In this document: positions 2,804-64,000 of the stretch, in pieces | How positions within the stretch are numbered: position 1 is the first letter of the stretch | Layout: every line of letters starts with the position of its first letter | Assembly (NCBI RefSeq): GCF_037042905.1 | Contig: NC_087245.1 | Coordinates: 14,138,001-14,202,000, forward strand | DNA length: 64,000 nucleotides | Source: Lytechinus pictus | Lineage: Eukaryota | Direction of reading: 5' to 3' | The notes under the pieces: model-generated | What the model was told of the DNA's origin: nothing | What the model saw: only the letters and a program-made list of their open reading frames with translations | The model's database searches: none | Made by a program: the position numbers and the translations under genes

Positions 2804-3306
2804 GTATGGTATCTGAAGGGCTCGGAAACCTTTGTTATTTGTACAAAATGAAATACAGCCAGTAGTTAAGGTCATCCAGCCTTCATCATGATATTTAGGC
2901 AACTCCTTTTCTAGTTAGGATTCATCTGCATTTGTCAGGAATCACATTTTGGCATCTATGACAACAGCACGCCTGCATTCTCCTCCGGTTTTTTTAATGC
3001 TGAAATAAGAGGATTGTAAGGAAAAAACAAATGGCTTCCTGTAGAAAGACGCTTCAATTTTTTTTTTTTTTTTGGGGGGGGGTAAATTCTTATGCAATTC
3101 TTTCTTAATAAAAGATTGTTCCACTTTGAACTATCTTGATAAAAGTTTATTTCATTCTATACTAACGTGACTACCATGATTTAGAATCATTCATTGTCTG
3201 CCTCATTGATGTTCCTATCCATGTTTTCCTGTGATTGAGGAGGATAAAAGAATTAGATCCCTAAAATGTTACATATGCATGTATCTGTCTTTTCTTTTTT
3301 TTCCAG

Positions 3307-5570: not shown

Positions 5571-8025
5571 TGCTGAGGATTTGTGTTAATGAGTGTTGAG
5601 TTAACCAATTGAGTTAAAAATTTCCTCTTGTCAGTTTGAAGATAAATCTTGATCAAGGAAGAATGCCGTAGCATGAAGAAGATTATGATGTATGAGTATT
5701 TGGTAACTGATTATTAAGAATGTCATCTGAAGATTGATTGGCCTGCTTAATACTACTGAGAAAAAATAATAATGAAATAAGAAAAAGAATAAATAATGGT
5801 CATTTAAATTGTTTTAATTGGATTGATGTCCAGAACAGATGTATGATTCTCTAACTGATTGGAATGATGATGAATGTATATGTGATGATTAGCTGGTAGA
5901 TTAAACATGATGTATCCAGCACAAAACCATAGCATGAGGTTGATAGCATGATAATGCTAACTATTTCAGGGAAACTAGGTTGAACAGCTATAATAAATCA
6001 GAAGCTTAATGAGGTTAATTAAGGTTATTAATCTTTTATTTTTATATTCATTGATGAATGTGGGTGCTGAGTGGAAGGCTGCATTGTACCTAAAGTTGTC
6101 ATCAAATTTAAGTGATGTCATTAGCACTGGTGGGGGCACTTAGGGGGGTGGTTTGCTTGTAAAATTTTTCCTCGGAAAAATGTGCCCCCCGTTTTGGAAA
6201 ATCTAATTCATAACAAAGAGAAAGATGGAAAAGATAATTAGCAAATGAAAAATAGTTAAATAAATACTGCTGACACTGCAAGTCTCCGAGTGTATATATC
6301 ATGCTTGGTATTGAAAAAAAATATATAAAAGACATGCACGCATTACCATGCGAGTTTCCATCCTTTCCATGAAGTTACACACGCAAATGTGCTTTATTCA
6401 AGTGAATATCATTTTATAAAATATACATGTGATCAGTTATCCCTTTATTAGCTTCTTCATTATGAAGATTATAGCATTCTTAAGTTTGGAATTGAATTGT
6501 TTGACTACTCTTTTTTGCATCAACATAATGTCTGAATGTAGAGACTAGAAGTTTTCTACACAAGTACACACTTGACTGTTTTTTAACCTTGTCTACAACA
6601 CTTCTAAGAACCCTTAATGAACTACAAAACACTGCATGTGAATGCAATTGGTTCTTACTTCAACTACAGACAAGACAATCTACATGCTAGACTCTTGTTA
6701 TTTAGTTTGATATTATGAGCTCTTTGTATTGGTGATGCCATGGGGATGTGGGATGTTGGGCACCCACCCTTATGATTTTTAAAGTAATGGGAAAAAAAAC
6801 CATGACAAACATGTAGGAATTTGAATTGCATTGATATCTTTTGTTTAGTGCTGAAAAGAAGATTTCTTGAATTGGCATTGTGATAGAAAGTTGAAAGTGT
6901 CTGTTTTCTTTGCCAATGTCTTACTCCTAAATATATTTTAGTTAATTGATATTTATATCAGGAACATGAACTTCCCCCAAAAAATAAAAAGAATATAGTG
7001 CTGAAAAACTGTATTGGTTTTGCCAATTTGAAGATGTAAGTGATCAAATAGAGATTTGAATAATTCCCTGTATGAATGAATGTCTCTATTCAGAGGATTC
7101 AGATGTAGGCCTACAGATATTTATTTAGCATCTTATTTCTTTTGAGGAAAAAATAGTTATTCTTATGTCACTGTTTTCACATCTTCATTAGATCTCATGT
7201 CATTCTTCTGGTTGTCTTGAATCATTTGTAAATTAGACTGATTTCATCCATATCAGTACTGTATGAACTTTCTAAGATATAAACAACTAGTTTACTAATT
7301 AAAGAATTAATTGACTTACTAAATAGGAAATCGAACCCCTTTTATGACTATCATCATTTGGGTTTTATAATAAAGGACTGATAATTCATTTCTATATATT
7401 ATTTTGAGGCACGTAATCCAATGAGTTCACAATTCTAAAATCAGACACAAATATTTAATGTTTTTTTGTGATTTCAGACATTATTTTCCTTCTCATTCGT
7501 ATCCAGAGAAAAGATATCTAAGGTGAATTGTTAACTCTGCAGTCATAATTTGCCCTGATCATGATGTTTTGTTCATATACCACACAAACATGCAAATTGT
7601 TTTTTTTTTCTTCCTTTTTTTTGTAATTGGGCTTACATATAATTCAATGATTGACATGCTAATTAAAATCATAAGCCAGCACCATGTTATATTGCATGTC
7701 AAGAGTCAAAGGTCAATGTTTGTCATTTGCTAATGCTAAAATTCCAAGTGTGATATTTTGGGAAGATGATTTGATTATGCCAGTCTTCACAATTTATCAA
7801 CTCAAAAATCTTAGTGCATTGTAAGAATGTGATTTAATTAAAAATGTCTTCAAAATTCTGCCATCTGTAAACTTCCAAGTGCATTTTCAGCATATATGTA
7901 CATATATATATATCTATATATAGTCTAAAGTAGCAATTCTCCAAATTCTGCATACTAAAGAATTTTAAGCAATTATATTCAGAATGAAGTATATATTCCT
8001 AGAATTTGGTCCAATCTTCCCCAAT

Positions 8026-15700: not shown

Positions 15701-15909
15701 TCATGGAACATGTGGAATCATGAGCATTGTGACATTTTGTGATTTTATACAGAGCTCCGTTGTTATTCCTGTTTGAATTTGAAACATTTGCATATTCCTT
15801 TGATTTGAAATAAAATATTTTGAGGGACACCATCAGTGCAGTCATTTGATGTAAATATTTTGTGAACTTAAGCCAAACTTAAATTGCCAATTTTTTTTTT
15901 CATTTCCAG

Positions 15910-16147
15910 GACTCGACAAGGATGAGCACAGAATGCGGAGTGGTCATAGAAGACTTTGAAGCAGCATCCAGCCGCGAGCTATCGGTTACTCGAGGACAGA
16001 CAGTCGAGATCCTTGACCAGCCGTATGAGAACCGAGACTGGTACCTGATCCGGACGCTGGCCCAGGACAATGCCACGCCCATAGAAGGAATGGTCCCGGC
16101 TTACTGTATCCGACTTGCATCTCAGAGATATAGCTCAAGCAGTCAAG
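15910..16147 (+). CDS. TRIO: Trio/kalirin exon encoding the first SH3 domain (DSTRMSTECGVVIEDFEAASSRELSVTRGQTVEILDQPYENRDWYLIRTLAQDNATPIEGMVPAYCIRLASQRYSSSSQ)
   Basis: T-tract plus catttccag acceptor ending 15909, gtatgt donor at 16148; 238 nt, phase 0 to 1. SH3 hallmarks D-F..., EL.V.RGQ.VE, W.L.R and G.VP are present. Confidence 0.95.
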
Positions 16148-17477
16148 GTATGTGGCATGCTGTTGTGGTCGTTGTTTAGTTTTTTGGTGTACTTTGTATT
16201 TTGTTTTGGTTGTGTTGTTGTCATTGTTTCTTTTCTATTATTCTATAATTTCCATTATATAGTTATTAAAGGATTCCTACAGCTGTACAAATAAATTTAG
16301 AACATCAGTTGAAATTATTAGGAAAATGTAAAATATAATACTCAAAGATCTTTTATGAAGAAAACTGAACAAAATTTTGAAAATTGAAAGAAAAAGAAAC
16401 ACAGTCAGATTTTTGCATAAGTCATGCAAGGCCTGTACTGATTTTATTTTTATTTTTTATTTTATCTCTGGGAAGTAAGGAAAGACCTGTCTATAAATGA
16501 TTTTAATTCGGTGATTTTTTTTCTTTTAGTTGATGGCAATAAATTTTATTTGTTCTGTTTTTTATTGTGCCAAGTCTTGACAAGTAGCTTATCAATATTT
16601 TATCCCCACATGATAGAGCTTGCTACGACATCACTCCTGATAGCGAATGACCTATAACCCTTATCCTAGCAAGCCTCCCACCTCCAATGTACACTTCATT
16701 TATGAGTGTTGTTTTTATTGAGTGAATGATTGTTTGGTTGATTGAAAGGGTTGTTTTTTATTTGTATATTCATATGTGAATGTAACAATTTTATATCTGT
16801 TTGTTTGGTGTTTGTATTCATTTTATTCATTTGTTATTTTTGTTGTAAGATGTCAAACTACTTCATTTGTTTTCATATGATATCAACATTCCCCAACCCT
16901 TCCCATGAATTCAAGTTGTGTAATATATGTGTTGTAGTATTTGTACATTTCATACAACAAAGCTGATGAAGCCTCATTCAAATATGTTAGAAAGCTATTA
17001 AATCAACAATAAAACTTTTCACTATTTTTGAACGTGACAAGACACATAGCTCCAATTGTCCAAAATTGCAATATAATGATTTCATCCTGACGTTTTATCT
17101 TGTCTTTCCAGTGATGCCTACAATTAATATGGCAACTTTTGGTTCTGTGGTAGGATTTCATAAGTTGTAAACTGAAGTATGGAAAAATCATTTTACAATT
17201 AAACTGATGTATGTTTTTGATTCATCCAGGAAGAAATACAAATTACGAATAGAGATCAATCTGATCATCTGGACTTACTGGTTTGAAACGGAGAACAGTT
17301 TCACGTCACATCATTTTACAATTACACTAACATTTTTTTTTAAATATCATTTTGCCACCTTGGAACAACAAAAAAGTCTCTTTCCAGTCAAATTATTATC
17401 TCTCAGTGATTCATATATCCATAGCCTTTGTAAAGAAAAATATATTGAGCGTTATTATGCTGTATCTGAATGAGGTA

Positions 17478-63298: not shown

Positions 63299-63434
63299 GG
63301 TTCCATTTCATAAAGACTTTATTAACAAATGCAAGATTTCTATAACAAATTTACTATCAGCCAATCAGATTGATTGATTTCTGTAGTTTTTATTGTAAAT
63401 TTTTTATTAAAACAGGTTTTTATGAAATGAGACC
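63299..63434. mobile_element. Decayed CWG-type MITE
   Basis: CATTTCATAAA ... TTTATGAAATG inverted ends and a central AGCCAATCAG, as in the 35781 element. Confidence 0.55.
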
Positions 63435-63524
63435 CAGGTCTGAAATAAAGCTTTGGGTTAGGCGATCATTCGACTAATGGAGGGTGGACTTATGGAAAGT
63501 CTACCTATTTTTTAGTCTACCTAT

Positions 63525-63750
63525 AGTGCCGCTGCAACTCTTTATCAAGTGACGTTATCAGATAATTTTCGTCACTTGATAAAGAGTTGCAGCGGCACTC
63601 GAAAGCTTGTGAACTTGTAAGCTAGTGAACACTTTTTGCGAGAGTGATCACGAATTTCCTAGAAAGCTAGTGAACACTTTTTGCGAGAGTGATCACAAAT
63701 TTCCTTGTTGACCATAGTAGATTGTGAGACAAATGAATACCCTCTAGCGA
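63525..63750 (+). mobile_element. Penelope-like retroelement terminal-repeat remnant (inverted + direct repeats)
   Basis: Perfect 30-bp inverted repeat (63525-63554 / 63570-63599), a hammerhead-like motif, then a 42-bp tandem duplication (63619-63660, 63664-63705). 3' boundary approximate. Confidence 0.65.
63572..63612 (+). ncRNA. Minimal type I hammerhead ribozyme-like motif (U3-A8 variant)
   Basis: TCAC-TTGATAA-A-GAGT(tgcagcggc)ACTC-GAA-AGCT-T-GTGA: stem I TCAC/GTGA, core UUGAUAA...GAAA, stem II GAGT/ACTC, palindromic AGCT stem III. Confidence 0.6.
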
Positions 63751-64000
63751 TTAGATAGTAGTACTTTGTGGATTTTGTCTCAATAAAAAAATATTGTTAT
63801 TCCAATATTTATCAGCATGAAAAGGGTTGAACACATATATGTAACTAGGATCTCAACTAAAGTGATTTTTGTGAAATACAGGCAGATGAATAGAGTGTTC
63901 ATAAGATTAAAGTGGATGGAAGGTCTCAGATTCATTTTTTTAATGTTTGATAACACTTCGTGTGTGTTGGGTTTTTTGCCAGAGAAAATAAAGACTAAAA

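Follow-up and report, generated by a model that had tools for sequence, protein, structure and literature searches.

The 41-nt motif at positions 63572-63612 of the window, by which we mean the whole 64-kb stretch of DNA that was analysed, is very likely of a known kind of ribozyme motif, namely the minimal hammerhead found in the terminal repeat (pLTR) of Penelope-like elements (PLEs), in the form that pairs U3 with A8, and the copy in the window is sense-oriented, truncated and most probably non-catalytic. The motif class is not new, as a U3-A8 minimal hammerhead of PLEs was published in 2014 (Cervera & de la Pena 2014, PMC4209133).

Layout of the motif and chance expectation

The motif is of the minimal type-I kind and is made up of the following parts.

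63572-63612, forward strand: minimal type-I hammerhead motif of a PLE tail, recognized from sequence, from alignment with families B and C, and from the genome-wide pattern row C1:14201576-14201608
63572-63575 with 63609-63612, forward strand: helix I, 4 bp, TCAC/GTGA
63576-63582, forward strand: core, U3 U4 G5 A6 U7 A8 A9
63583, forward strand: unpaired A between A9 and G10.1
63584-63600, forward strand: helix II, closed by G10.1 (63584) and C11.1 (63600), with the U at 63588 bulging out, GC/GC pairs further in and AGCG as its loop
63601-63603, forward strand: G12 A13 A14
63604-63607, forward strand: palindromic A15.1-G-C-U16.1 (AGCU), in place of helix III
63608, forward strand: H17, a U, with the cut predicted between 63608 and 63609

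Read in order, the letters of 63572-63612 are TCAC, TTGATAA, A, GAGTTGCAGCGGCACTC, GAA, AGCT, T and GTGA, and helix II of this copy can be written out as GAGT-T-GC-AGCG-GC-ACTC. A preliminary description of the sequence had proposed a stem I, a UUGAUAA core followed by an extra A, the arms GAGT..ACTC, a GAA, an AGCT and a U before 63609, and each of these elements lies where it had been placed. The invariant U4 G5 A6, A9, G12 A13 A14, A15.1-U16.1 and a base other than G at position 17 are all present between 63576 and 63608. Positions 3 and 8 form a Watson-Crick U-A pair, and the canonical C-G is absent there; G10.1-C11.1 closes helix II, and both the unpaired base and the palindromic 15.2-16.2 are present as well. 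U at H17 is a permitted hammerhead base. Among 35 sampled copies this position is U in seven, the window copy included, and C with the same motif in 24, while the remaining four carry other changes. When folded in isolation, the 41-nt motif adopts the hammerhead shape with a minimum free energy of -10.1 kcal/mol.

We compared the occurrence of the motif with chance expectation using two descriptors. The relaxed descriptor, which accepts a CUGANGA or UUGANAA core, stems from 3 bp upwards and a helix III of any kind, was run over both strands of the window and finds two places, compared to a mean of 0.74 in 100 dinucleotide shuffles; because 53 of these 100 shuffles contain at least one such place, the bare motif is not beyond chance. 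The strict descriptor adds published features of PLE minimal hammerheads: helices I and II must each reach 4 bp, G10.1-C11.1 must be present, and helix III must be a palindrome of 2, 4 or 6 nt. It finds a single place in the window, 63572-63612, and no place in any of the 100 shuffles. The second relaxed match, at window position 5727, has a CTGAAGA core, a 3-bp helix II and a non-palindromic helix III, and we judged it to be a chance match.

It had been anticipated that standard searches would overlook the motif, and Rfam indeed gave no hammerhead family in the window, neither at the gathering score nor at E<=10. Searches of the window, of its local 701 nt, of three loci from family A and of as many from families B or C (families defined below) likewise gave no hammerhead, and returned only sub-gathering matches of a generic hairpin-like or snoRNA-like kind. 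The Rfam models also overlook family C, which has a canonical core, and for this reason their silence on the window motif carries little weight and the Rfam test has little power for forms that lack helix III.

Comparison with published hammerheads places the motif more closely. The minimal hammerheads of PLE terminal repeats are described in PMC4209133 with a helix I spanning 4-5 bp, a helix II that can reach 7-8 bp, a conserved G10.1-C11.1 pair, a base that lies between 9 and 10.1, and a palindromic 15.2-16.2 for helix III. The same account reports a U3-A8 core covariation for the Cercyon elements of S. mansoni, with about 1,300 matches, and, for the D. virilis hammerhead, a base that bulges out midway along helix II. 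Each structural feature listed there (helices, bulge, palindrome and U3-A8) is found in the window motif; the palindromic helix III and the U3-A8 core, both singled out in the preliminary description, are thus present and had already been described for PLEs. The window motif shares with the metazoan PLE and Cercyon hammerheads of that paper its terminal-repeat site, its type I architecture, a 4-bp helix I, a long helix II and the U3-A8 pair, and it differs from them in its host and in its helix sequences, the comparison having been made by text description. In the Penelope element of D. virilis, as presented in the same source, the usual extra base stands at the 5' end and a 2-nt palindromic insertion forms a minimal helix III, which is likened to the window motif. 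The D. virilis hammerhead differs in having a helix I of 2 bp and an intron that ends at this helix, and its core is not reported as U3-A8 in the part of PMC4209133 that treats it. Canonical type-I hammerheads (newt and schistosome satellites, non-LTR retrozymes; Rfam Hammerhead_1) share the catalytic core positions and a short palindromic helix III that implies dimers in tandem transcripts, but their core is CUGANGA, their helix I runs to about 6 bp and makes loop-loop contacts, and their helix III, though short, is a real one.

A Penelope-like retroelement as carrier

The motif lies within a repeat that corresponds to the end of a PLE.

63552-63753, forward strand: last 202 bp of the PLE (pLTR/3' region), 5'-truncated and without the optional 31-bp 'tail' extension
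63614-63703, forward strand: two 45-nt tandem repeats in the pLTR, 93% alike, whose number varies between copies (sequence, RNA-read joints)

The repeat at 63552-63753 has 88 scored matches at 87-100% identity, from 704 candidate places in the 812-Mb assembly, and all 29 further loci that were compared match it at 95-99% identity along roughly 195-205 bp. It also aligns to both pLTRs of a full-length copy, L042, at 126-327 and 2992-3193. The PLE family to which it belongs, family A, is young and high-copy. Its uniformity (97-99% identity) resembles that of the D. virilis Penelope, which is described in PMC4209133 as a recently active family with high copy-to-copy conservation, and is unlike the heterogeneous S. 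mansoni sets of the same paper.

Longer family A copies carry, on the same strand, an ORF resembling a reverse transcriptase with a GIY-YIG domain, which ends about 190 nt upstream. The frame in L042 spans 832 aa from stop to stop, or about 825 aa from the first ATG. Residues 338-518 match Pfam RVT_1 at 32.7 bits, above the cut-off of 29.6, and residues 697-764 match GIY-YIG at 12.5 bits (E 0.19), below the cut-off of 22.6; the translation shows both a YVDD reverse-transcriptase motif and a VVY-x10-YIG string. Look-alikes of the ORF in the Atlas, which we treat as a lead only, fall into RVT_1/HTH_animal/DUF8422 clusters of about 800 aa, mostly arthropod and some with GIY-YIG, the share of the latter being given by one figure, 27% of the members of one cluster. 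Among solved structures there was no sequence match to the ORF. A protein search found the motif downstream of the ORF, and on the ORF strand, in 30 of 30 ORF-bearing loci. Its position in the PLE tail at all of these loci bears out the retroelement origin that had been suggested for the motif, and the linkage to Penelope ORFs for which the preliminary description had called is likewise seen, above the cut-off for the reverse transcriptase and weakly for GIY-YIG.

Four of the 30 ORF loci (L042, L043, L047 and L050) combine a frame of 830-832 aa with enough upstream DNA, and each of them carries two motifs on one strand, 2866-2867 nt apart. The arrangement is pLTR-ORF-pLTR, with a unit about 2.87 kb in length. 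In 15 of 35 sampled copies the end is formed by the optional 31-bp extension, which is the first part of the following unit together with its ATG; an optional 'tail' of 30-40 bp is presented as a PLE signature in PMC11167929. Directly upstream of 10 of the 35 sampled copies there is an inverted piece of the tail, with varied break points.

Within the element, the motif lies about 24 nt downstream of TATAAATAG, a TATA-like box, with a CCAAT-like stretch further upstream, and the predicted cut site falls 160 nt before the ORF ATG. The CCAAT-like box and TATAAATAG stand ahead of the motif in this way in full tails (L042:2980-3011, L028:1380-1500), and together they look like a pol II promoter which, in tandem copies, would be aimed at the downstream ORF. 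The window copy breaks at 63552, just downstream of the TATA box, and the promoter-like stretch is absent from it. Downstream of the motif, each of the 45-nt repeats holds GAAAGCTAGTGAAC or GTAAGCTAGTGAAC, echoing the 3' half of the hammerhead (window 63614-63703; L042:3063-3127).

This arrangement resembles that of Poseidon (PAc) from Anolis carolinensis, for which PMC11167929 describes a pLTR hammerhead near the start of the ORF and the optional 30-40 bp 'tail'. As described there, the PAc hammerhead has a C3-G8 core and overlaps the start codon, with a cut 26 bp after the ATG, in contrast to a cut 160 nt before the ATG here. Cleavage of PAc has been shown experimentally in that work, where it is protein-assisted; for the window family the cut is a predicted one. 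A preprint links animal retrozymes to PLE terminal repeats (bioRxiv 10.64898/2026.07.22.740005), and this link fits the many short non-coding copies in the present genome.

Covariation across families and the question of cleavage

The protein search returned further PLE ORFs at 62-63%, 60% and 57% amino acid identity, and we compared their tails with that of family A. At the same tail position, and equally far behind the ORF, family B (57-60% amino acid identity) carries TCAC, TTGACAA, A, GTTG-A-GC-AGCA-GC-CAAC, GAA, ACGT, C and GTGA, and family C (62-63%) carries GC, CTGACGA, A, GTCT-A-GC-AGCTT-GC-AGAC, GAA, ACGT, C and GC. An alignment of 13 rows, of which 12 are distinct, covers three lineages, the rows within a family being near-identical. 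In this alignment 91% of cells pair, compared to 75.5% in column shuffles and 16-50% with slid partners, and two-sided change is found in seven of the 13 pairs, namely the 3-8 pair, three helix II pairs, the palindrome and two helix I pairs.

Over the 12 distinct rows the 3-8 pair is CG in seven and UA in five, and in none is it unpaired. Helix II keeps G10.1-C11.1 in 12 of 12 rows, changes on both sides in three of its six pairs, and pairs in 98.6% of cells. In families A and B helix I measures 4 bp; most rows of family C have just 2 bp, and one family C locus, L070, has a helix I of 5 bp with a 1.1-2.1 mismatch. The extra A precedes G10.1 in every one of the 13 rows, family A has AGCU as its palindrome while families B and C have ACGU, and the invariant core bases are fixed in all three families, with one old family A copy showing a change of G5 to U. 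The covariation of homologues that the hammerhead reading had predicted is accordingly seen in helix II, in the palindrome and in the 3-8 pair, but it is weak in helix I, where 72.9% of cells pair. Beside the family C element, L070:976-1032 on the reverse strand partially matches metazoan SRP RNA in its 5' portion, the Alu domain, at 22.9 bits (E 0.0039), below gathering, and is possibly a 7SL-derived SINE.

Because the alignment compares only three lineages, we added two genome-wide IUPAC pattern searches. A pattern with a canonical or U3/A8 core and S at 10.2 and 11.2 gave 960 matches, compared to 56 for its reversed control. Among the matches listed, the helix II arms include GGCC/GGCC, GGUUGC/GCAGCC, GGUAGA/UCUACC, GCUUGC/GCAAGC and GG(A)CAG/CUGCC, the palindromes include ACGU, AGCU and AAUU, and the extra base is A or C. 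The second pattern combined a U3-A8 core with W at positions 10.2 and 11.2 and matched 742 times, compared to 154 times for the reversed control. Among 100 listed of these 742 U3-A8 matches, 64 belong to family A, that of the window included, two to family B and 14 are ungrouped, and three further U3-A8 families account for six, four and 10 rows; the helix II arms of these three families are unrelated yet complementary (GACG../..CGUC, GUCCAC/GUGGAC and GAAUU/AAUUC). Many family A motifs stand in head-to-head pairs on opposite strands, 100-700 bp apart (e.g. C1:4483209/4483779 and C2:17837769/17837887). Many dispersed singles, together with head-to-head pairs on opposite strands at this spacing, are also described for the minimal hammerheads of S. 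mansoni in PMC4209133.

To follow the tail at the RNA level, three raw RNA runs carrying the same species label (X21, X22 and X23) and one contig set were mapped on L042:2450-3350; a search for sequencing runs with window 63300-64000 itself had listed no RNA run. RNA reads cover the family tail 80-230 deep in each orientation, about equally in the two, and both RNA depth and DNA contig depth are much greater in the final ~190 nt of the tail than in the part before it. In the three RNA runs there is no pile-up of read ends at the predicted site, L042 3048/3049, with a threshold for listing ends of a fifth of the local depth, and depth is smooth across it. The libraries look unstranded and most reads probably derive from dispersed monomeric fragments; the lack of an end pile-up counts weakly against efficient cleavage in bulk RNA.

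Several joints were also observed in these reads. One skips 114 nt, L042:3047-3162 (window 63607-63722), and begins one base before the predicted cut; it is carried by six reads in X21 and four in X22, is found neither in X23 nor in the DNA contigs, and may represent a deletion variant among copies or an event at the RNA level. Other joints skip 45 nt or go back 45 nt, indicating that the number of 45-nt repeats varies among expressed copies. Finally, 27 reads in X21 and 36 in X23 diverge at L042:3011 (window 63571), exactly one base before helix I, into another, fairly consistent sequence on the upstream side, with an agreement of 0.78-0.79, and X22 contains a similar group of 26 reads with a different sequence and an agreement of 0.97 that breaks off at 3001. 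The diverging reads suggest a subfamily that shares the hammerhead and the downstream part while having another leader.

These data bear on whether PLE tails might conserve the motif as a structured RNA or DNA element, hammerhead-shaped but no longer cleaving, that acts instead as a folding or binding platform for the protein of the element or as part of a promoter or 5' leader. We regard this as unlikely. The metazoan PLE minimal hammerheads treated in PMC4209133 are presumed to be dimeric and have very low activity in vitro, even as dimers. For the Anolis element, PMC11167929 reports that cleavage needed protein, that hammerhead mutants were without effect on insertion in vitro, and that RNA-seq reads neither started nor stopped at the site of the cut. 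Ends do not pile up at L042 3048/3049 either, and the motif lies just downstream of the CCAAT/TATA-like stretch. Against a non-cleaving element stands the pattern of change itself: precisely the catalytic bases stay the same from one family to the next, N7 and the helical parts are free to vary, and a difference between families at position 3 or 8 always involves both partners. A pure protein-binding site would not require such a pattern.

The truncated copy and its host gene

The copy in the window has a peculiar 5' end and lies downstream of an exon of a recognizable gene.

63525-63551, reverse strand: inverted 5' piece, the reverse complement of 63573-63599 (sequence, RNA fold)
15883-16176, forward strand: SH3-domain exon of a Trio/Kalirin-like host gene (Pfam SH3_1 4.6e-07, weak SH3_KALRN match)

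Repeat identity together with the upstream inverted piece delimits a 229-bp 5'-truncated PLE tail at 63525-63753. The inverted piece gives rise to a perfect 30-bp inverted repeat, with its left arm at 63525-63554, a 15-nt loop at 63555-63569 and its right arm at 63570-63599, and the palindrome is one of the family's inverted-piece junctions, of the kind counted above in 10 of 35 copies. The RNA fold of this repeat reaches -60.6 kcal/mol (z -10.8) whereas the hammerhead pairing in the same context reaches -9.8 kcal/mol, and both the catalytic core and helix II fall within the right arm of the hairpin. No second piece of the family A element was found in the 64-kb window. Given that the core and helix II are held in a 30-bp hairpin and that the window offers no partner copy, the window copy is most probably non-catalytic. 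Directly to the left of the inverted piece, at 63498-63524, an 11-nt direct repeat, AGTCTACCTAT, occurs twice with TTTTT between its copies. Inspection by eye found no target-site duplication of the window insertion, and no matching duplication to the right of 63753.

The host gene was placed by a RhoGEF family search combined with exon-wise comparisons. The best solved-structure match of the SH3 exon is the TRIO chain 7sj4_A (1.2e-13). RhoGEF exons on the forward strand 2.5-3.8 kb before the window match Kalirin/TRIO GEF1 best (about 1e-30), and further RhoGEF exons on the same strand 57 kb after the window match ARHGEF25/TRIO best (about 1e-10 to 1e-11). As the SH3 and RhoGEF exons are all on the forward strand, the PLE fragment lies in the sense orientation between exons of a Trio/Kalirin-like dual-GEF gene, and judging from these flanking exons the copy at 63525-63753 is most likely intronic. 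The motif had been assigned to the sense strand of a Trio intron; its sense orientation to a Trio/Kalirin-like gene and its location between the SH3 and second-GEF exons are upheld, while its intronic status retains the likelihood just given.

The strength of the hairpin raises the possibility that it, and not the hammerhead, is what matters here, as an endo-siRNA or miRNA-like precursor directed against the PLE, with the hammerhead likeness being incidental at this site. Its z of -10.8 would suit such a role, as would the complementarity of its arm to hundreds of PLE tails, and generic miRNA-precursor models score 35-46 bits on it. Nonetheless, for the mir-42, MIR5649 and MIR1120 models tested these matches are far under gathering (45.6 vs 70, 44 vs 100 and 35.5 vs 86 bits), and MIR5649 scores alike on both strands, which together argue for a generic hairpin and not a miRNA family. 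Inverted junctions are, moreover, common accidents in this PLE family, with varied break points (10/35), and we consider a small-RNA precursor highly unlikely to be the point of this locus.

We hold it to be extremely unlikely that the copy in the window acts as a ribozyme and cleaves the Trio/Kalirin-like pre-mRNA in cis. It lies in the sense orientation to the host gene, the isolated 41-nt motif folds as a hammerhead at the energy given above, and its U at H17 is allowed; however, the perfect 30-bp hairpin competes with this fold and exceeds it in stability by about 50 kcal/mol, the copy is a monomer without helix III, and the 64 kb contain no second copy. In the experiments on monomeric minimal hammerheads described in PMC4209133, no cleavage was detectable. 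With the hairpin, the missing partner and the inactivity of published monomers taken together, self-cleavage of host RNA at this locus is very unlikely, and the idea put forward in the preliminary description, that of a working self-cleaving unit in the host pre-mRNA, is not supported, in view of the hairpin (-60.6 vs -9.8 kcal/mol), the single copy in 64 kb and the RNA reads, which show no read-end pile-up at the predicted site of the family tail. We give virtually no credence to a foldback or MITE-type DNA transposon with long terminal inverted repeats and a chance match in one arm, a reading first adopted from inverted pairs with 9-bp target duplications (L003 with TAAACAAAT, L006 with TGATACATA) and compatible with most copies being short and non-coding, but dropped because longer copies carry an RT/GIY-YIG-like ORF: the unit forms the 3' terminus of an element that encodes an RT and, in 30/30 loci, follows the ORF on the ORF's strand, its ends are not inverted terminal repeats since one bears the start of the next unit, and the motif covaries across PLE families.

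Returning to the preferred reading, a PLE minimal hammerhead preserved in a truncated copy, the following course of events may be proposed. By analogy with published PLE hammerheads, two copies of the motif would pair via their palindromic AGCU and thereby build helix III. The paired motifs may then cut after C17 or U17, possibly with help from a protein of the element, judging from PMC4209133, PMC6765202 and PMC11167929, and such cutting would trim the element's RNA. The window copy itself would be a by-product of retrotransposition, namely a tail of 229 bp, truncated on its 5' side and bearing there a copy of its own first bases in inverted orientation. This tail would have been inserted in the sense orientation, most likely in an intron of the Trio/Kalirin-like gene, with its core and helix II buried in the hairpin.

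A broader role is conceivable but quite unlikely in our estimation, in which U3-A8 minimal hammerheads are catalytically competent in vivo and intronic copies nick host pre-mRNAs in trans, or hairpin copies feed silencing small RNAs. If this were true, hundreds of dispersed sense intronic copies could pair in trans via AGCU and nick, for example, the Trio/Kalirin-like transcript; alternatively, hairpin copies such as that of the window could feed small RNAs that silence the element. For the host gene the insertion is of little consequence, as it is a dead fragment whose main local effect is a 30-bp perfect hairpin in a likely intron. The case does indicate that a reading of the sequence by itself can catch a genuine non-canonical ribozyme motif overlooked by Rfam-based annotation. 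It also brings to light one genome in which Penelope hammerhead families of the C3-G8 and of the U3-A8 kind occur together and in which the compensatory changes are clean. Because at least five U3-A8 families and several C3-G8 families share this genome, they offer a test of the 3-8 tertiary pair that nature has set up with its own internal controls, and they would be useful for testing how far this pair tolerates change or for building a better covariance model of hammerheads that lack helix III.
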